Shown: in pieces, positions 33,403 through 56,796 of the stretch
Position numbering within the stretch: the first letter of the stretch is position 1
How the letters are laid out: each line of letters starts with the position of its first letter
Notes under the pieces: model-generated
Databases searched by the model: none
Seen by the model: only the letters and a program-made list of their open reading frames with translations
Told to the model about the DNA's origin: nothing
Origin: Kiritimatiellia bacterium
Lineage (GTDB): Bacteria > Verrucomicrobiota > Kiritimatiellia > RFP12 > UBA3636
Direction of reading: 5' to 3'
DNA: 64,000 nucleotides
NCBI GenBank assembly: GCA_050942875.1
Contig: JBMNOD010000001.1
Span: 16,597-80,596 of the forward strand
Translations under genes and position numbers: made by a program

Positions 33403-33876
33403 TTACTTCGCTTCGGGTTTCTTCGCGCCCGAGCGCGCGGACTTGGGCTGGAGCATGAACATCATCGTCGCCTCCGCCGCGATTTCGCCATCGACGGTGA
33501 TCGTGCCCTGAATCTTGGCGATCATGCGGCGGTTGCTGACGAGCTTCGTCTCGATGCGAAGCTGGTCGCCCGGCTGGACGATCCGGCGAAACTTCGCGCT
33601 GTCCACGGAGAGCAGAATCGTGTCGAAGTCCGGCACCGTCTCCATGTTGCTGAGGATCATGAGCCCCGCCGCCTGGGCGATCGCCTCGATCTGAAGCACG
33701 CCGGGCATCACGGGATAGCCGGGGAAATGACCTTGGAAGAAAAGTTCGTTCATCGTGGCGTTCTTGATCGCCACCAGATGCGTGCCGCCCTCGGTTTCCA
33801 GCACGCGATCCACCAGCAAAAAAGGGTGGCGGTGCGGAAGGAGCTCCAGGATTTTGTCGATGCCAAATGATTTCAT
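33403..33876 (-). CDS. fabZ: 3-hydroxyacyl-ACP dehydratase
   Basis: 157 aa from MKSFGIDKILELLPHRHPFLLVD (ATG 33876); hot-dog fold with FxGHFP motif (FFQGHFPGYPVMPGVL). Confidence 0.88.
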   Translation of the reverse strand: MKSFGIDKILELLPHRHPFLLVDRVLETEGGTHLVAIKNATMNELFFQGHFPGYPVMPGVLQIEAIAQAAGLMILSNMETVPDFDTILLSVDSAKFRRIVQPGDQLRIETKLVSNRRMIAKIQGTITVDGEIAAEATMMFMLQPKSARSGAKKPEAK

Positions 33877-34004
33877 CTCGAGTTCTCGTTGCGATTGCAG
33901 CTTCCGGCGAAGCCCTCGTCGGGAATCCAACTGCTTTCGATTGGCGGCAATCATAGCAAAAACCACCCCTTCCAGCAAGGACACTTGTCACCCCCCTGCA
34001 AGCC

Positions 34005-34726
34005 GGGTGTGTGTCAGAAAAGTGACAAACAAATCCAGCATTGCCTATGTCATGCGTATTGAAAGGGTTTTTGTGTAGTGCTTTCGCTGCAATCGAACCG
34101 TGCCTTGCACCGTCGCTGTTTTCTCCTTTTCAGGAGGTGTGTTTTCATTGCCATGCCCCTCCCTGCACGCCTCTGTGCCTGTTTAGTGAGGAGTGAGAAG
34201 TGAGAAGAGCGTAGTTCAGGCCGGGGACACCCCAGACCCCGTTTTTAGACAGGGTTGCAGGATTTGCAGGATTAGGATTGGACTCCCCGGAATCTTGTCA
34301 ATCTTGTAATCTTGTCCAAGACTGCGCCACCTGCGCCGCGCCACCTACGATTTTTGTGGCTATGAAGGGAACTTGGAATTGGGGCGTGGCCGTGGCGGCT
34401 TCGCCGAGCGGGGAATGGCCACGAAAAACACAAAGACGCACAAAAAGTGGGTGGCGGTGGTGGGGGTTTGGACAAGATTACAAGATTGACAAGATTGCCT
34501 TGGTGGATGGAATCCTATCCAAAAAACGGGGTCTGGGGCGTCCCCGGCCTGAACTACGCTCTACGCTCTTCTCACTCCTCACTATGCGAAGGGCGACGCG
34601 GCGCAGGTGGAGGTTTTTGATCTAAAACAGGCACAGAGGGGGATTGGTTTTGAATTTGGCATCAGGAATGCCTCCATGTTTCATGGAAGCTCAAGGAACC
34701 ATGTTACGATTCTGACACACACCTTG
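34005..34726. mobile_element. MITE-like non-autonomous element, copy 1 (~722 bp), with giant internal foldback
   Basis: 15-bp terminal inverted repeats GGGTGTGTGTCAGAA (34005..34019) and TTCTGACACACACC (34713..34726). 8-bp direct repeat TGCAAGCC abuts both ends (33997..34004 and 34728..34735). The interior ~34165..34645 is a long near-perfect palindrome. Confidence 0.6.
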
Positions 34727-34916
34727 CAAGCCTGTTCTTGAAGTTAACAGGTTAACCTGTTTTTAATCACAAAACCAAATCAACAATTGGTATTATCCTC
34801 AGCGTAAGTGGATAAAGGGGTAGGACGGCATTCGACATCAAGGCAAACCCTTCCTTGCAAGCTGGAACAATCCCCTGCTGTATCAATGGTCGCAACGTGA
34901 AATCTGGAGGCTTCAC

Positions 34917-37704
34917 ATGAATTGGAACAAGCACATCAACGAAAATGCATCACGCCAGGAAACACGCCTGCATGGGATGCGGAGACTCGCCCTCGTCGCG
35001 TTATTGACGGCTTCCGGCGCCGCCGGCGCCCAAACGCTGTACTGGGGCGGCGGAACCACGGACATCGCCGACGACACGCCCCTTCCAACCGACGCGGCGC
35101 TGCTGAGCGGCACGTGGGACGCCACGACCCGGAACTGGACGACATCCCCCACGCCCGGCGCCTACACGTCGTTCATCGACGGCGCCGACGTGCAATTGGG
35201 GTGCTACACGAACATCAACGACGATGCGCTCGTCACGCTCGAAGCCAATCAAAGAATCGGCTCCCTGACCGCCTGCATGAGCCTGGCGAACAATTACAAT
35301 CGCGACTTCGGACTGACCGCCGCCGCGCCCGTGACCCTGACGGCCTCCGGCGCGAAATTCGTCGTCAACACCGTCGCGCCGCAAGTGACACGGCGCATCA
35401 CGCTCTACCGCAACGTGTCCCTCGCCGGAGACGTCCCGTTCGAAAAAACAGGGCGCGGCAGCTTCTACATCAACTCCGACAGCAGCGGCTACACCGGGAG
35501 CGTCCGCACCTCGATGGGGACTCTCTATCTCGAGGCCTCCGGCTCCCTGAGGGGCGTGCCCCGCTTCGTGTTGGCCGGAATCCCCATGAGCGCCATAGCG
35601 ACCAGCTACAGCGGAAACCCCTTCAGCACGGGAAACATGACGTTCTCCCCCCCCCTCGGGGGCAAACGACAAGCTGGACGACTCGGCCTTGATCGTCTTG
35701 AAGCGCGGCGCCTTCGAATTCCGCGGAGCGGGGGGCAGAACCGAAACCATCGGACGCATCGATGTCGAGACATGGGGCGTTCTCGGAGCCTGGGAGGGCA
35801 ACACGGACGGCATCCTCACCCTCTCGGATCCAACGGCCGGCCTGACGCGCGGGAGCACCGGCTCGGGCATGGCGATGGTTCACGTCAACGCCTCGGGCGC
35901 GCCCTTGGGCAACTTCAGCGTGCCCAACGGCATCGAGACGGACACGCTTCTGCCCTGGATCGCCACCAGCCGGGGAAGCTTCATGTATGTGGACAGCGCC
36001 GACAACAACACCCTGAAACAGGTCGCGGTGAGCGAAGCCGCAACCAACGTGACGACCTGGACGAGCCTCTACGACGCCACGAGCAACGTGCGGGTCGGCA
36101 ACGACTCAAGCGTCGCGCTCGCGGGGGCGCTGGACGGCTCCCTGACCCTGAAGTCCCTCGGCTTCTTCAACAACAGCGCCACGACGTTGGACCTCGGCGC
36201 CACCAACACCCTGACCCTGGCTTCCGGCGGCATCGCCTTCTACCCGGGAAGCTGGGGTGCGCATCAGACCCTGGCCAACGGCGCCCTTGCCTCCGGCTCC
36301 GGCACGCTCCATCTGCACAGCGGCGACTCGTCCATGTCGACGACGCTGATCCTCTCTTCGCCCATCGTCGGCGCCGACACGGACGTCGTCAAGGCGGGCG
36401 TCGGCCAGGTGGAGTTCCGGGGAACGAACAGCAACACCTACGGCGGAACGACGATCGTCAACGGCGGGAATCTGCTTCTGGACAAGACGGACGGCGCCAT
36501 TGCCATCCCCGGCCCCCTGGTCGTGCGCTACGGCGGCTCGGTCGACGCCCATGCCGGCAACATCAACCCGACAGCGGACGTGACGATCGAGTCCGGGGGG
36601 TTGATCTACGCCCAGAGCCAGACTTACAGCGGCGTCCTGAAACTGACGGGCGGAACCCTGCTCTTCCCCAATGCATGGATCACCTTGAACCACGCGACAA
36701 CGCCCGGCCTCGTCTTCAACGGCGGCTGGATCAACTACGACTCGAGCTGGTACGGCGGCATCCACCTCCAGACCGACGTGCGCTACGAAAGCACGGCCGA
36801 GACGCAGGCGCGCTTCGAACGCCTCGAATGGAACTACCCCAACGCTTCCTACAACATCAGGCTCAACGGCGGCAACCGCACCTTCGACATCGCCGACTCC
36901 GCCACGCTCCCCGCCGACGTTCCCGAAATGGTCGTCGACACGGCCATCGTCGACGGCTCCCCGGCCGGCGGCGCCCTGACCAAGACCGGCGCGGGCGTCT
37001 TGCAGCTCTCCTACACGAACAGCTACACCGGCGGCACGACGGTGAACGGCGGGACGCTGCGCGTCGCGAAAATCACCGCGCCCGCCCAAAGCGGACTCTC
37101 CGCCTACACCGTGGCCGGAATCGGATCGCACATCGTCACCTTCACCCAACCCGTCGCAAGGGACATGGTCGTCGGCCAGCAGATCACCGGATCGACGATC
37201 CCGACGAATCGCACGGTCACGGTCGCGCGCGTCCTCAACGACTGCGAAATCATGACGAACGGCGAAAACGTCAACGGCGCTTCCACGAACGTGGCCGTCG
37301 CCGCCGTGTCGCGCGCCGGCAGCCTCGGCACGGGCCCCGCGACCGTCAACAACGCCGCCACGCTCGAAATCGACGACGGCATCGCGCTGGCCAACGACGT
37401 CACCGTCAACGCGGGCGGCACCATCGCCGCCTCCGGCGCAGGCCTCGGCAGCCTCGTCGTCGATGGCGGGACCGTCTCGGCCCGACTGGCGAAGGGCCCC
37501 CTCGCCATGACCGGCGCCTTGAGCCTCGACGACGCGACGCTGGCCGTCGACTCGCTGCCCGGCGACGAGCCCGTGACGATCCTGTCGGCCGCCGGCGGCG
37601 TCACCGGGAAATTCACGAGCATCCCCGACAAAGTCACCGTGCGGTACCACCCCACCTCCGTCACGGTGAGCCGGCTCAAAGGCACGCTCGTCATGGTTCA
37701 ATAA
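34917..37704 (+). pseudogene. PATR-repeat autotransporter-like surface protein gene, frameshifted at a C9 homopolymer (phase-variable or pseudogene)
   Basis: GGAGG Shine-Dalgarno and ATG 34917; signal peptide MRRLALVALLTASGAAGA. N-terminal part reads in frame 3 through C9 at 35647..35655, and the PATR-repeat body (TKTGAGVLQLSYTNSYTGGTTVNGGTLRV etc.) continues in frame 1 (track ORF 35689..37704). Removing one C gives a continuous ...NMTFSPPSGANDKLDDSALIVLKRGAFEFRGAGG... reading. The track ORF tail 35700..38027 is Arg-rich nonsense. Confidence 0.7.
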
Positions 37705-37774
37705 GTAAGGAAGGCTCAGGGGTCAACGGCAAGACCCCTGAACCCCGCTCCTGCCCCCTTGGGGTGCGCGGCAA

Positions 37775-38815
37775 CTATGTTGACGCGCACCCTTTTTCTT
37801 TCTCCCCGTCCCGCCACACCAGGTTGACGGCCATCGTGGCCGGATGCGTCGGCAGCCCGCGCTCGCCGACGCGCAACAGCGAATCCAGCCACTCCACGGC
37901 GCGCCGCCCCACTTCGTCCGGGGAAAGACAAAGCCCGCTCCCGACTGCGGTCGGTTCGCTGATCCACAAGTTCGTAAAGCCCACCGCGTCGGGAACCGCC
38001 CATCCGGAATTCTTCAGCAGCCAGTAGAACGCGTTGTTGAAGCCGAGGACCATGTCCGGCTTGTGCTTGCGCATCCATTCATCCACAAGACGCTCGACAA
38101 CGGCTTGGGGAACGGCGTCCTTGTCCGCCGGACGGCCCTCTCTGATCCAGATTTTGATCTTCAGCACGGGAATGCGGCTGCGAACGGGAACCATCTGCTG
38201 CCGATCGAGAAAGGCCGCCTCGCGGTCATGCATGTCCAGCGCCGTCGGCATGTCCAACAGCATCATCCCGATCCGGCGACAGCCGGCGGCCCGGCATCGA
38301 TCCCAGGCTTCCTGCACGGCGCGGAAGTGGTTCGGCATCACCAGATTCACCGGCGGACACTCCACGCCCTTGCTGCACGCCACGGAGATGAAGCGGGACC
38401 AGTCGAACCTGGCGCAGAATCCCGGCGTGAAAATCTGGCCCACCAGCACGCCGACGATGCCGCGGTTGTAGAGCGTCTTCGACAATTTCCAGGGATCCGG
38501 ATGATCCGAGCACACGTACTTCTCCAACCGGTAGCCATAGGCCGCCGCCCGCTCCTCCATGCCGTCAAGCCCCTCCAGTTTGTCCCCGACAACCGCCAGC
38601 GTCTCCCCCCCGGCTTTCGGACGACGCTTCCAACGATGCGCCGCCAGCGCGGACAACATCGGATCCGGACGATAGCCCAGCTTCGCGGCGATCTTCCAGA
38701 TGCGCGCCCGGGTCTCGGATGAAATGCGCGTGCTCCCGCGCAACGCCAGCGAGACGGTTGCATTCGTGCATCCGGCTTCCTTCGCAATGTCCCTCAGTGT
38801 CGGCCGCTTGTCCAT
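37775..38815 (-). CDS. LacI-family transcriptional regulator
   Basis: N-terminal HTH PTLRDIAKEAGCTNATVSLALRG plus periplasmic-binding-like sugar-binding domain; 346 aa. Confidence 0.8.
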   Translation of the reverse strand: MDKRPTLRDIAKEAGCTNATVSLALRGSTRISSETRARIWKIAAKLGYRPDPMLSALAAHRWKRRPKAGGETLAVVGDKLEGLDGMEERAAAYGYRLEKYVCSDHPDPWKLSKTLYNRGIVGVLVGQIFTPGFCARFDWSRFISVACSKGVECPPVNLVMPNHFRAVQEAWDRCRAAGCRRIGMMLLDMPTALDMHDREAAFLDRQQMVPVRSRIPVLKIKIWIREGRPADKDAVPQAVVERLVDEWMRKHKPDMVLGFNNAFYWLLKNSGWAVPDAVGFTNLWISEPTAVGSGLCLSPDEVGRRAVEWLDSLLRVGERGLPTHPATMAVNLVWRDGEKEKGCAST

Positions 38816-38874
38816 GGCTTGATTATAGCAAATCGGTTTGTCCGGTTAAATGAAAAAAACGCCGGCGTTGGAAG

Positions 38875-39133
38875 TGGGTGTGTGTCAGAATCGTAACATG
38901 GTTCCTTGAGTTTCCATGAAACATGGAGGCTTTCTTGATGCCAACTTCAAAATCAACAGGCACACTGGACGTGGGAGCGGCATGGCAATGAAAACACGCT
39001 TCTGAAATCAAGAAGGGACGGCGACGATGCAAGGCACGGCTCGATTGCGGTGAAAGCACTGCACCAAATTCCCTTTCAATGCGCATGACATGGGCAATGC
39101 CGGATTTGTCTGTCACTTTTTTGACACACACCC
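38875..39133. mobile_element. MITE-like element, copy 2 (259 bp, inverted and internally deleted relative to copy 1)
   Basis: TIRs GGGTGTGTGTCAGAA (38875..38889) and TTTTGACACACACCC (39119..39133), with 8-bp TSD TTGGAAGT at 38867..38874 and 39134..39141. The two ends are ~90% identical to the two ends of copy 1 in reverse complement. Confidence 0.6.
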
Positions 39134-39380
39134 TTGGAAGTGTCTTGGGGACTCTTGCTCCGTTCAGGTTCGTCGCAGCACGGCCGAATTCCCCGACGGC
39201 AGGCTCGTCCTTCGAAAATCATGCCGTCTTGGGACAGGCTCTGTCTAGACTCTCCAGCGACTGGGAATCGGTCGAGTCAATCAACGACCTGGAATTGTCC
39301 GCCCTCTCCGATTGACTGATTACGCCTGATTGCGTTTTCATGTTGCACCTGCGCCGCCTTTCCTGCGATAATCCACCGGC

Positions 39381-40118
39381 ATGGAAGCTTACGACATCAC
39401 TTCTTTCGAACAGCGCCTCGACGGCATCCACGACCGGATCGCCGCTGCCGCCGCCCGCGCGGGGCGCTCGCCCGACGACATCCAGCTCGTGGCCGTCTCG
39501 AAGACCTTCCCGCCGGACGTCGTCGACGCCGCGCAGCGCGCCGACGTCTCCGTCTTCGGCGAAAGCCGCGTCCAGGAAGCGCTCGCCAAGGCCGCCGCCT
39601 GCGGCGCGGCCGAATGGCACTTCATCGGCCGCCTCCAGCGCAACAAAGTCCGCCACGCCCTCTCGCTCTTCACCACCATCCACAGCGTCGATTCCCTCCC
39701 GCTGCTCCACGACATCGCCCGCATCCAGGACGAAACGGGCGCGCGCCCGCGCCTCCTGCTCCAGGTCAACGTCGCCGGCGAAGCCTCGAAAATCGGCTTC
39801 AGCCCCGCGACCGTCCGCAGCGCCCTGCGCGAAGCCCTCGACATCGGCGGGATCGACATCGTCGGCCTCATGACCCTCCCGCCCTGGGTTCCGGATCCCG
39901 AATTGTCCCGCCCCCACTTCCAGACGTTGCGCACCCTGCGCGACGCGCTTCAGGACGACGTCGGCATCAGCCTCCCCGAGCTGTCGATGGGCATGTCCGG
40001 GGATTTCGAAGTCGCCATCGAAGAGGGCGCCACCTTCGTCCGCATCGGCACCGCCCTCTTCGGCAAGCGCGGGAGCTGGAAACCGCAACGTTCGCTCGAC
40101 ACCGATGATTTCGTTTGA
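39381..40118 (+). CDS. yggS: YggS-family pyridoxal-phosphate homeostasis protein
   Basis: 245 aa with alanine-racemase-N-like fold and conserved AVSK PLP-lysine region (LVAVSKTFP). Confidence 0.85.
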   Translation: MEAYDITSFEQRLDGIHDRIAAAAARAGRSPDDIQLVAVSKTFPPDVVDAAQRADVSVFGESRVQEALAKAAACGAAEWHFIGRLQRNKVRHALSLFTTIHSVDSLPLLHDIARIQDETGARPRLLLQVNVAGEASKIGFSPATVRSALREALDIGGIDIVGLMTLPPWVPDPELSRPHFQTLRTLRDALQDDVGISLPELSMGMSGDFEVAIEEGATFVRIGTALFGKRGSWKPQRSLDTDDFV

Positions 40119-40932
40119 TTCCCACGCCCACTTCCCCGGCGACGCCTTCGCCGAACACCGCGCCCAAATCGCCCGCGCCCGCGAAGCGGGGCTCTGCGGC
40201 ATCCTCGCCGTCGGCGGAAGCCCCGACCTCGACCCCGGCGCCATCGCCATGGCGCGCGAACACCCCGGCGACGTCCACCTCGCCCTCGGCTGCGACCGCG
40301 ACACCGCCCCCGCCCTGGCGCCCGACCCCGCCACGCTCGACGCCACCCTCCGGCGCCTCCGCGCCACCCTCGCCGACCTCGCCCGCGACGGCATCGCCGT
40401 CCGCGCCATCGGCGAAATCGGCCTCGACTTCTCGCGCAACCCCTCGGCAGCCGACAAGGCCGCGCAAATCGCCCTCTTCGACGCGCAGCTCGCGCTCGCC
40501 GACGAACTCGACCTCCCCTGCACCATCCACAGCCGCGACGCCGACGCCGAGACGCTCGCCTCCCTCGAACGCCACGCCTCGCCCTCCCGGCGGCGCACCG
40601 GCAGCGTCGGCGTCCTCCATTGCTTCACCCGGGAGGCGGATTTCGCCGCCGCGCTCATCGACCTCGGCCTCTGCATCGGCCTCAGCGGCATCCTCACCTT
40701 CCGCAACGCCGACCCCCTCCGCGCCGTCGCCGCCGGATTGCCGCACGAACGCATCCTCGTCGAGACCGACTGCCCCTACCTCACGCCCGTCCCCATGCGC
40801 GGCCGCCCCAACGAACCCGCCATGCTCCCGCACACCGTCCGCCGCCTCGCCAAGATCCTCGGCCTCGACGAAAGCGACGCCGCCGACCTCACCACCGCCA
40901 ACGCCCGCCGACTCTTCCAGATCGACCCATGA
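40105..40932 (+). CDS. tatD: TatD-family metal-dependent hydrolase/DNase
   Basis: HxH start (FDSHAHF), GEIGLD, CFT and ETDCPYL motifs. Confidence 0.85.
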   Translation: MISFDSHAHFPGDAFAEHRAQIARAREAGLCGILAVGGSPDLDPGAIAMAREHPGDVHLALGCDRDTAPALAPDPATLDATLRRLRATLADLARDGIAVRAIGEIGLDFSRNPSAADKAAQIALFDAQLALADELDLPCTIHSRDADAETLASLERHASPSRRRTGSVGVLHCFTREADFAAALIDLGLCIGLSGILTFRNADPLRAVAAGLPHERILVETDCPYLTPVPMRGRPNEPAMLPHTVRRLAKILGLDESDAADLTTANARRLFQIDP

Positions 40933-53625: not shown

Positions 53626-53867
53626 CCCGCAAGTCTCGCCGCAAATGTTTTCGTGGTCAGTCAGATTGGCCGGATCAGGCCGATCAGCATTTCCGTACAG
53701 CAAAGTGGACGCGGCGTCCTCGCCGCGTGTCGCCGCCTGCGCCCCAGTCTCCACCCTGCCACACGCCCTCTTTCATCATGGCCACGAAAAACAAAGACCA
53801 CACAAAAAAAATCTGTGCTTTCTATGCTTTCTATGGATAAAAACCGCCAAGGACGCCAAGCAACTCT

Positions 53868-53947
53868 GTAATTCTGTAATCCATAATTCGTAATTCCACC
53901 ACCCTCGCCCATCCACCTTCTTTTTGCGTTTTTCGTGGCCATTCCCC
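53868..53947 (+). repeat. 80-bp direct repeat, left copy, flanking the R-M island
   Basis: GTAATTCTGTAATCCATAATTCGTAATTCCACCACCCTCGCCCATCCACCTTCTTTTTGCGTTTTTCGTGGCCATTCCCC; near-identical copy at 56354..56433. Confidence 0.7.
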
Positions 53948-56056: not shown

Positions 56057-56353
56057 CCCGGCCACAAATAGCGTTGCGCACGGAGATTGAGGCATGGGAT
56101 CTGGAATTTGGCGTTGGAAAAGGGGCACGGACATTCCTGTCCGTGTTCGTCCACGGGTTGGAAAACCCGTGCCCCTGATTTGCAGCATGAATTATGGCCG
56201 GGTTAGTAGTTGGCTGGCAGACTTCACATGTCTTGGCTGCTGGTTGTCAGGAATTCCTGCGTCGGGTTGTTTGCCAATTTGGATTCCTCAGGCGAATCTT
56301 GCCAATCTTGCAATCTTGTCTAAAAAACCACTCGGCGAAGCCGCCACAGCCAA

Positions 56354-56433
56354 GTAATTCTGTAATCCATAATTCGTAATTCACCACCCTCGCCCATCCA
56401 CCTTCTTTTTGCGTTTTTCGTGGCCATTCCCCC
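56354..56433 (+). repeat. 80-bp direct repeat, right copy, flanking the R-M island
   Basis: Matches 53868..53947 except for one indel (TTCCACC vs TTCACC). Confidence 0.7.
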
Positions 56434-56584
56434 AACTCGGCGAAGCCGCCACAGCGCCACACCCCAGCTTCCAGTTTCAAGTGTCAAGTTTCCAACCAAT
56501 ATGCTATTCTTTCACCCATGCAACCATGCAGGACTCTAGACCATGGTCCATGGACTCTCGAAGTTTTTCCCATCGCCCACCACC

Positions 56585-56796
56585 CTTCGTCTAGTGAGGA
56601 GTGAGAAGTGAGAAGAGCGCAGTTCAGGCTGGGGACACCCCAGACCCCGTTAGGATCTACGTTTCTGTATCTTTCTGTTGTCTTCTGTGGACAAAACTTT
56701 TACCCCCACCCACCCCTCCGGTCAAACCGGGGTCTGGGGCAGCGCCCCAGCGGAAACTTCTCTCTCCTCTCTACGCTCTCCTCACTAAAACCAACC
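56585..56796. repeat. foldback (long inverted-repeat) element related to the core of MITE copy 1
   Basis: Left arm GTGAGGAGTGAGAAGTGAGAAGAGCGCAGTTCAGGCTGGGGACACCCCAGACCCCGTT and complementary right arm ...CCGGGGTCTGGGGCAGCGCCCC...CTCTCCTCAC. The same arms occur at 34186..34245 and 34525..34583. Confidence 0.6.

Follow-up and report, generated by a model that had tools for sequence, protein, structure and literature searches.

Two short non-coding elements, E1 and E2, flank a 4.1-kb segment in a 64,000-nucleotide stretch of contig JBMNOD010000001.1 from a Kiritimatiellia bacterium (GCA_050942875.1); the whole stretch is referred to here as the window. The segment carries a gene for a PATR-repeat surface protein and a gene for a LacI-family regulator. 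Our analysis makes it very probable that E1 and E2 are miniature inverted-repeat transposable elements (MITEs) of an ISKra4-like insertion sequence (IS), and that the two were inserted independently of one another by promoter-directed targeting. The limits of the elements, their terminal inverted repeats (TIRs) and their target-site duplications (TSDs) are as follows.

33997–34004, no strand: left copy of the E1 TSD, TGCAAGCC, read directly and identical to 34725–34732.
34005–34724, plus strand: E1, a MITE of 720 bp, with ends matching the family TIR and a core aligning to E2 at 84–94%.
34005–34027, plus strand: left TIR of E1, GGGTGTGTGTCAGAAAAGTGACA, like a left inverted repeat (IRL), identical at 23 of 23 positions to element ends in 12 loci from GTDB genomes, including the right end of the IS in locus L005.
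34702–34724, minus strand: right TIR of E1, AGGTGTGTGTCAGAATCGTAACA, like a right inverted repeat (IRR), with a mutated terminal base.
34725–34732, no strand: right copy of the E1 TSD, TGCAAGCC, read directly.
38868–38875, no strand: left copy of the E2 TSD, TTGGAAGT, read directly.
38876–39133, minus strand: E2, a MITE of 258 bp with ends GGGTGTGTGTCAGAATCGTAACA and GGGTGTGTGTCAAAAAAGTGACA, inverted with respect to E1.
39134–39141, no strand: right copy of the E2 TSD, TTGGAAGT, read directly.

The 23-nt inverted ends (GGGTGTGTGTCAGAAAAGTGACA) are common to E1 and E2. E1 opens at 34005 with GGGTGTGTGTCAGAA and stops at 34724 with TTCTGACACACACCT, its final base being T rather than C. Within each element, the two 23-nt ends are 83–86% complementary, and their first 12–15 nt are the same but for one base. 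The 15-mer of the TIR is found in the window as two exact and two one-mismatch matches, all located at the four element ends, and E1 and E2 are the two copies of the family that the window holds. Each is bounded by a perfect 8-bp TSD of its own sequence; the chance of an exact match between 8-bp flanks is approximately 1.5 × 10⁻⁵ per element. The first-pass annotation, made from the sequence alone, had described MITE-like elements with shared TIRs and individual 8-bp TSDs, and all of these are present. Its start of E1 and end of E2 are retained, while the other two limits shift slightly, E1 ending at 34724 rather than 34726 and E2 starting at 38876 rather than 38875.

Comparison of the two elements confirms that E2 is an inverted copy of E1. 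The similarity had been placed in some 115 bp of one end and 65 bp of the other, at about 90% identity; instead, E2 aligns over its whole length, with 179 nt at 84% (E1 1–179) and 80 nt at 94% (E1 640–719), a divergence of 6–16%. The gap in size corresponds to approximately 456 extra internal bases in E1 (34185–34640). These include the foldback, which is missing from E2 as had been reported, and E1 reaches 720 bp only through this nested repeat of about 400 bp. The internal open reading frames (ORFs) at 34278–34625 and 38823–39131 have no match in Pfam, and tblastn with the cognate transposase described below detects no similarity in E1 or E2 themselves. We conclude that both are non-coding, non-autonomous MITEs. 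Because E1 and E2 have diverged, the terminal base of E1 is mutated and E1 contains a nested insert, both insertions are probably old, and the two elements are possibly immobile now.

The ends of E1 and E2 recur widely. A scan with the pattern GGTGTGTGTCARAANNGTRACA returned 24 loci from the GTDB representative genomes, many of them at contig ends and 21 in metagenome-assembled genomes (MAGs) labelled Lentisphaerae, Lentisphaeraceae or Lentisphaerales, together with 63 loci from JGI metagenomes. Across Lentisphaerae/Kiritimatiellia MAGs and metagenomes, family ends mark more than 100 unrelated junctions, and their 23 nt, GGGTGTGTGTCA followed by G or A and then by AAAAGTGACA, are nearly invariant. 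The MITEs that these ends bound measure 94–790 bp and fall into sub-families of about 100, 215, 250–285 and 500–790 bp, whose interiors are unrelated even though the 23-nt ends are kept. Perfect 8-bp TSDs enclose 10 more complete copies (in L007, L010, L042, L047, L064, L067, L075, L090, L092 and L094), and the two TSD copies match at seven of eight positions in a further four (L008, L070, L074 and L085). L007 has a relative at 1650–1933, with 65–70% identity by a rough by-eye estimate. We conclude that the family ends belong to a transposon lineage abundant in Kiritimatiellia and Lentisphaerae, bacteria of the Planctomycetes–Verrucomicrobia–Chlamydiae (PVC) group.

A transposase with matching TIRs, for which the first-pass annotation had suggested looking elsewhere, is encoded by six full-length ISs of 1739–1767 bp that bear the same 23-nt ends as E1 and E2.

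L005, 475–2213: parent IS with the same 23-nt ends and transposase.
L038, 287–2034: parent IS with the same 23-nt ends and transposase.
L058, 39–1802: parent IS with the same 23-nt ends and transposase.
L069, 924–2690: parent IS with the same 23-nt ends and transposase.
L078, 408–2151: parent IS with the same 23-nt ends and transposase.
L103, 2583–4328: parent IS of 1746 bp in a 57.7-kb contig, with a perfect TSD, AACAACAA.

The parent ISs encode a DUF6788 ORF of about 113 amino acids and a DDE ORF of about 390 amino acids. The latter matches the NCBIfam ISKra4 model with E-values of 1.6 × 10⁻⁵⁸ to 2 × 10⁻⁵⁹, the next best model being ISLre2 at 1 × 10⁻¹⁹. The two ORFs overlap at a conserved A9/A10 run situated 380–400 nt from the left end, and a change of one A (an addition, or a removal in L038) fuses them into proteins of 534–541 amino acids that align across the junction; some database homologues, of 527–540 amino acids, are already fused. 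This arrangement suggests a two-ORF transposase whose parts may be joined by programmed transcriptional or translational slippage. In metagenomes, close homologues of the transposase form more than 160 clusters, almost all on IS-sized contigs, and where they are named by their source the name is "hypothetical protein".

The ends of E1 and E2 mirror those of the parent ISs beyond the TIR, the sub-terminal similarity reaching about 30–35 nt: GTRACATGGTT is shared at the IRR, and GACAAATCC compares with GATGAATCGG at the IRL. Such resemblance at both ends is as expected of internal-deletion derivatives. The parent ISs also contain an inward promoter, TTGC..-17-TATAAT, 40–70 nt from the IRL, which is degenerate in E1 and E2. 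E1 and E2 are thus most likely ISKra4-type (p-MULT 4) MITEs derived from an IS of about 1.75 kb; we found no description of ISKra4-derived MITEs in the literature.

The position of the family relative to promoters was assessed on 115 unique outward-reading flanks, with positions counted from the element end. TTG starts at position 27 or 28 in 30 of these 115 junctions, compared with 2.2% at other positions (binomial p = 1.4 × 10⁻¹⁵), and the −35 consensus at family junctions is TTGAC. The motif TAnnnT follows after a spacer of 16–19 nt at 16 of the 30 TTG junctions versus 14 of the remaining 85 (Fisher p = 2 × 10⁻⁴). The TTG signal holds separately for loci from genomes (10/32) and from metagenomes (19/79) and for both kinds of end. 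When the −35 criterion was relaxed to at least four of six matches with TTGACA, specificity was too low to bring out the positional signal: 28 junctions qualified, while other windows of position averaged 13 and reached 24 at most. The signal was therefore judged by criteria anchored on TTG or on the full promoter. Insertion at a fixed distance upstream of predicted promoters is a property of the family.

Insertion of this kind is already known, since ISKra4-group ISs, like TnGBS and ISLre2, insert 13–17 nt upstream of the sigmaA −35 box, and do so on either side of the promoter when their inverted repeats (IRs) are symmetric (PMC3942029). Table S2 of that study counts the distance from the IR, with the direct repeat (DR) included (PMC3942029). 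This is the convention used here, so the spacing in the present family really is about 10 nt larger; among the 115 family junctions there is no excess at 13–17 nt. Promoter targeting has thus been published for ISKra4-group elements, whereas the spacing itself has not. A candidate promoter beside the IS in L103 (4329–4372, TTGCGC-17-TAAGGT) has its −35 box 16 nt from the IR, which is the published ISKra4 spacing; this is a single case and may be due to chance.

Both elements of the window obey the family rule, each at its left end.

33950–33978, minus strand: candidate fabZ promoter, TTGCTG-17-TATGAT, with a −35 box that starts 27 nt from the left end of E1.
38822–38849, minus strand: putative promoter of the LacI-family gene, TTAACC-16-TGnTATAAT (10 of 12 matches in the scan), with a −35 box that starts 27 nt from the left end of E2.

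Reading outward from the left end of E1, one passes the 8-nt TSD and 18 nt before meeting the −35 box of fabZ, whose promoter stands 74 nt upstream of the gene. Reading outward from the left end of E2, the same 8-nt TSD and 18 nt lead to the −35 box of the LacI gene, whose ATG lies 6 nt past the −10 box. The orthologues L100 and L101, which are free of the MITE, keep the −35 and −10 boxes of fabZ, and the MITE-free orthologues L026, L027, L029 and L031 keep the LacI promoter. Because they are conserved in orthologous loci without the element, these promoters are native host DNA, and their sequence and conservation point to promoter function at both sites. E1, which the first-pass annotation had placed in the promoter region of the PATR gene, seems rather to be positioned relative to the fabZ promoter, at the family spacing, and not relative to the PATR gene; E2 does stand at the LacI promoter, as had been proposed, with the −35 box at position 27. 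Candidate PATR promoters would lie in host DNA between E1 and the gene, for example TTGAAG-18-TTTAAT at 34738–34767 and an extended −10, TGgTATTAT, at 34788–34796.

Three further features of these promoter regions may be recorded. The TATAAT upstream of the LacI gene ends 6 nt before the ATG (window 38813–38849), so the LacI mRNA is probably leaderless. The sequence TTTAACCGGAYAAC...TGCTA upstream of the gene is conserved in orthologues and may include an operator. In L100 (1–300), the closest relative, whose FabZ is 89% identical, the DNA upstream of fabZ is homologous to the window only up to about the point where E1 is inserted, and G+C-rich hairpin repeats take over there, a pattern that suggests a recurrent site of insertion or rearrangement at this promoter-proximal spot.

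We propose the following course of events. Internal deletion of an IS of about 1.75 kb with an ISKra4-like DDE transposase would have given rise to the non-coding E1 and E2. The transposase, made from two overlapping ORFs, probably by slippage at the A9/A10 run, would have been supplied in trans by a full-length copy elsewhere in the genome, supply in trans being needed because the window has no full-length copy. It would bind the 23-nt ends and make an 8-bp staggered cut in the target. E1 and E2 would then have been inserted separately, each about 18 nt (26 nt with the TSD) upstream of a host sigma-70-type −35 box, that of fabZ for E1 and that of the LacI-family gene for E2, leaving the core promoters intact. 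E1 would later have been hit by a second, unrelated foldback repeat. The shared target geometry accounts for the presence of both elements in divergent promoter regions and for the seeming bracketing of the PATR–LacI segment. Most simply, the bracketing layout is a by-product of two promoter-directed insertions in neighbouring divergent regions.

A number of observations weigh against this account and temper our confidence in it. There is no match to the cognate transposase by tblastn between the elements, as had been reported, or elsewhere in the window. Five of the six full-length ISs are without a clear TSD: the contig of L078 ends at the IS, so that flanks could be compared for L005, L038, L058, L069 and L103, and in the first four of these they are mismatched, possibly because the flanks are chimeric products of metagenome assembly. 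The transposases score 198.9–201.7 bits (199–202 when fused) against the curated NF033572 cut-off of 205, falling 3–6 bits short, and it is for this narrow shortfall, despite clear homology, that we call the lineage ISKra4-like. The family spacing of 26–27 nt from the IR is not the published 13–17 nt, and the −35 box of fabZ, TTGCTG, is a weak match to the consensus. In the GTDB representative genomes and the JGI metagenomes, no other interior of the E1/E2 sub-family is found, and only the 23-nt ends recur.

Nor was an empty-site allele recovered. The first-pass annotation had proposed a comparison with empty sites in related strains; these were reconstructed as CACCCCCCTGCAAGCCTGTTCTTGAAG for E1 and as the 28-mer AACGCCGGCGTTGGAAGTGTCTTGGGGA for E2, and the exact E2 sequence is absent from JGI metagenomes. 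The fabZ and LacI orthologues, of 71–89% protein identity, are without the element, and their upstream regions are too diverged to define a precise empty site; for the LacI orthologues (71–80% identity), which have different neighbours (Laminin_G_3 genes), all that could be established is that the promoter is conserved, and the same holds for fabZ. Exact look-ups of LacI, YggS and FabZ retrieved only contigs identical to the window, from the three runs SRR31066179, SRR31066035 and SRR31061296, and the organism's Logan contigs are interrupted within the elements or right next to them. Since they stop there, neither empty sites nor inversion would be visible in them. The contigs L025, L033, L035 and L036 (SRR31066179, SRR31066035) end inside the MITE ends and also at 34168, before the nested repeat. 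These breaks indicate that the elements act as assembly breakpoints, as expected of repeats, and the genome probably holds more copies sharing 31-mers with them.

Among other explanations, the one that fares best, though we regard it as improbable, is that the elements have been kept as sources of promoters, operators or RNA structures for the PATR and LacI genes. Both do lie in divergent promoter regions, the parent ISs carry an inward promoter and E1 contains a long foldback, all of which would suit such a role. The promoters on the LacI side of E2 and the fabZ side of E1 are, however, host DNA conserved where no element is present, which also counts against the earlier suggestion that the elements may supply regulatory sequence. 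Moreover, the IS-type internal promoter is degenerate in both elements, and Rfam gives no family match above noise, the one sub-threshold match on the foldback (MIR839, 27.8 bits against a gathering score of 200) being attributable to chance. The location near promoters is sufficiently, and better, explained by the target preference of the family than by regulatory supply.

The first-pass annotation had also likened the layout to an invertible cassette or a composite transposon, and neither comparison withstands scrutiny. In the former, homologous recombination would flip 34725–38875 and so vary the phase of an adhesin and a regulator. The inverted repeats do have 80 nt in common at 94% identity, and about 31 of these form an uninterrupted identical stretch, in which the Logan contig L025 ends on both sides, and the run of nine C residues in the PATR gene indicates that the locus may vary in phase by another route. 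Nevertheless, the TSD halves match, which shows that the segment has kept its net orientation since insertion; after an inversion, TGCAAGCC would be paired with ACTTCCAA. The genes of and beside the segment contain no recombinase domain recognised by Pfam, and the LacI promoter and the candidate PATR promoters are inside the segment, so that flipping it would disconnect nothing. Only the orientation of the window was seen, in short contigs that do not span the elements. We therefore consider inversion very unlikely.

Slightly less credible still is a composite transposon, in which the inverted MITE copies would form the ends of a 5.1-kb unit with the PATR and LacI genes as cargo. In familiar composite transposons such as Tn5 and Tn10, a single duplication encloses the entire unit, and one or both of the ISs are autonomous. 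The present arrangement resembles them in having related, inverted elements around a two-gene segment, and the region has been rearranged at some time, since the LacI neighbours differ in relatives. In contrast to Tn5 and Tn10, each element here has its own intact TSD, neither encodes a transposase and none is present in the window. The outer flanks read TGCAAGCC on the left and TTGGAAGT on the right, whereas transposition as a unit would have left two matching ones; from the separate TSDs and unlike outer flanks it follows that the 4.1-kb segment never moved as a unit. The G+C content of the segment (34725–38875), about 65%, is the same as that of its surroundings, the LacI gene keeps the promoter of its MITE-free orthologues, and copies that differ by 6–16%, one with a nested insertion, are not a recent pair. 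Finally, the notion that the TIR-like motif is a conserved host regulatory site, to which its constant proximity to promoters might lend colour, can practically be discarded: it occurs at more than 100 junctions beside unrelated genes in several genomes, as inverted pairs enclosed by 8-bp duplications whose sequences are otherwise unrelated, and at the ends of transposase-encoding ISs, and it is absent from the orthologous fabZ and LacI promoters.

Promoter-directed insertion of two ISKra4-type MITEs thus remains our preferred reading, and E1 has a later history of its own. The extra DNA in E1 is made up of two parts.

34185–34583, no strand: nested foldback, absent from E2, that belongs to another, unrelated family of repeats; its ends are AGTGAGGAGTGAGAAG... 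and ...CTCCTCACT, and the window has one more copy and two fragments.
34584–34640, no strand: 57 bp without an E2 counterpart in the comparison of E1 and E2, ending in an inverted copy of CCTCTGTGCCTGTTT.

We conclude that E1 is an E2-like MITE that took a nested insertion later. The 15-nt CCTCTGTGCCTGTTT is present as an inverted pair, at 34170–34184, just before the nested element, and at 34625–34639. The 57 bp at 34584–34640 belong to neither the E2-like core nor the foldback. The foldback family has a further copy in the window at 56593–56786, with fragments at 56290–56470 and 53778–53947, and related hairpin units occur in loci of the TIR family (L023, 281–398; L052, 7487–7733; L078, 211–328; L082, 192–438 and near 1053). 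Its members have purine-rich ends (AGTGAGGAGTGAGAAG) and a hairpin core, GGGGACACCCCAGACCCCG, and are mosaics of AATCTTG heptad runs and a GGCCACGAAAAACACAAAGAC module. Both window copies are bordered by T...A, which may be a TA duplication.

The genes around the elements were called from the phase of G+C content at third codon positions (GC3) together with Pfam.

33403–33876, minus strand: fabZ, 157 amino acids, Pfam FabA (E = 7 × 10⁻³²), N-terminus MKSFGIDKILELLPHRHPF.
34917–37704, plus strand: frameshifted gene for a PATR-repeat surface protein, with Pfam PATR in the 35689–37704 frame.
37775–38815, minus strand: gene for a LacI-family regulator, Pfam LacI and Peripla_BP_3.
39381–40118, plus strand: yggS-like gene for a pyridoxal phosphate-binding protein, divergent from the LacI gene across E2, Pfam Ala_racemase_N (E = 2 × 10⁻²¹).
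40105–40932, plus strand: tatD, from GC3 phase and Pfam.

Each element accordingly occupies an intergenic region between divergent genes: fabZ and the PATR gene flank E1, and the LacI and yggS-like genes flank E2. An identical FabZ protein at NCBI is so named and comes from a 113-kb contig of a Kiritimatiellia bacterium MAG. An ORF of 511 amino acids on the minus strand beside E2 (39219–40754) was rejected as a gene, since GC3 phase and Pfam give the plus-strand yggS and tatD. The PATR gene is split into two frames by a run of nine C residues at 35647–35655, near which (about 35650) its GC3 phase switches; with eight C residues it would form a single ORF of 928 amino acids. The run could be a site of slipped-strand phase variation in an adhesin, the mark of a pseudogene or an error in sequencing a homopolymer, and the Logan contig L025, from the same sample as the window, carries the same nine C residues. 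When 5920–7065 of L029, from a metagenome, is compared with 5331–8816 of L027, the Laminin_G_3 gene beside the LacI orthologue is seen to be cut to 649 amino acids in L029, from 1161. The lost part is replaced by an ORF of 381 amino acids without a Pfam match, which is possibly an insertion element and is unlike the ISKra4-like transposase.

Neisseria Correia elements offer a parallel to E1 and E2, being small, non-coding, TIR-bounded and TSD-flanked intergenic repeats that are mobilised in trans and often lie near promoters. Their target duplication is TA, and they can themselves give rise to promoters or RNase III sites, whereas here the duplication is of 8 bp, the promoters are pre-existing host sequences and proximity to them arises by choice of target. 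A closer relationship is with the ISKra4 family (Guerillot et al. 2014, PMC3942029). Elements of the p-MULT type have IRs of 18–39 bp with a conserved terminal C and DRs of 8–9 bp, and the ends of the ISKra4 group are GGGTG.../...CACCC (PMC3942029). The present elements have these same ends, a 23-nt IR, an 8-bp TSD and a homologous DDE transposase, and they share fixed-distance insertion upstream of sigma-70-type promoters, in either orientation with near-symmetric IRs. Apart from the longer spacing, they differ in that the window elements are non-coding and of 258 and 720 bp, and in that the cognate ISs have a DUF6788 ORF and a DDE ORF joined at the A9/A10 run; a two-ORF layout, with a −1 frameshift, was described for the ISMich2 group and not for the ISKra4 group (PMC3942029). 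Mutator-like elements of the TnGBS/ISLre2 type likewise choose sites upstream of sigmaA promoters, without disrupting the core promoter (PMC3942029), but they insert 15–17 nt from the −35 box, in one fixed orientation and mainly in Firmicutes (PMC3942029), and the similarity of the transposase to theirs is much weaker (ISLre2, E = 1 × 10⁻¹⁹). Hosts from the PVC group appear in the 2014 list of phyla only as Planctomycetes (PMC3942029).

For this locus, the reading as a composite or an invertible adhesin cassette is replaced by two independent, promoter-drawn MITE insertions, and the elements explain the contig breaks in short-read assemblies of this organism. The wider interest lies in the family-wide rule of promoter-proximal insertion with an unpublished spacing, and in a promoter-targeting ISKra4-like lineage, with several MITE sub-families, that is abundant in the PVC bacteria of digesters and wastewater, where it has gone unannotated. 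On balance, and with some reserve, we favour the view that the E1/E2 family and its parent ISs are an unnamed PVC lineage of ISKra4-like elements whose autonomous and miniature copies stand one helical turn further from the promoter (−35 box at 27–28 nt, compared with 13–17 nt) than those of any described promoter-targeting transposon. If this is so, it would represent a second, independent geometry by which Mutator-like elements recognise promoter DNA or promoter-bound RNA polymerase, and in uncultured members of the Kiritimatiellia and Lentisphaerae the insertions would naturally mark sigma-70 promoters. The fixed offset of insertion could then aid both the annotation of promoters in uncultured phyla and the mechanistic study of promoter-directed transposition.

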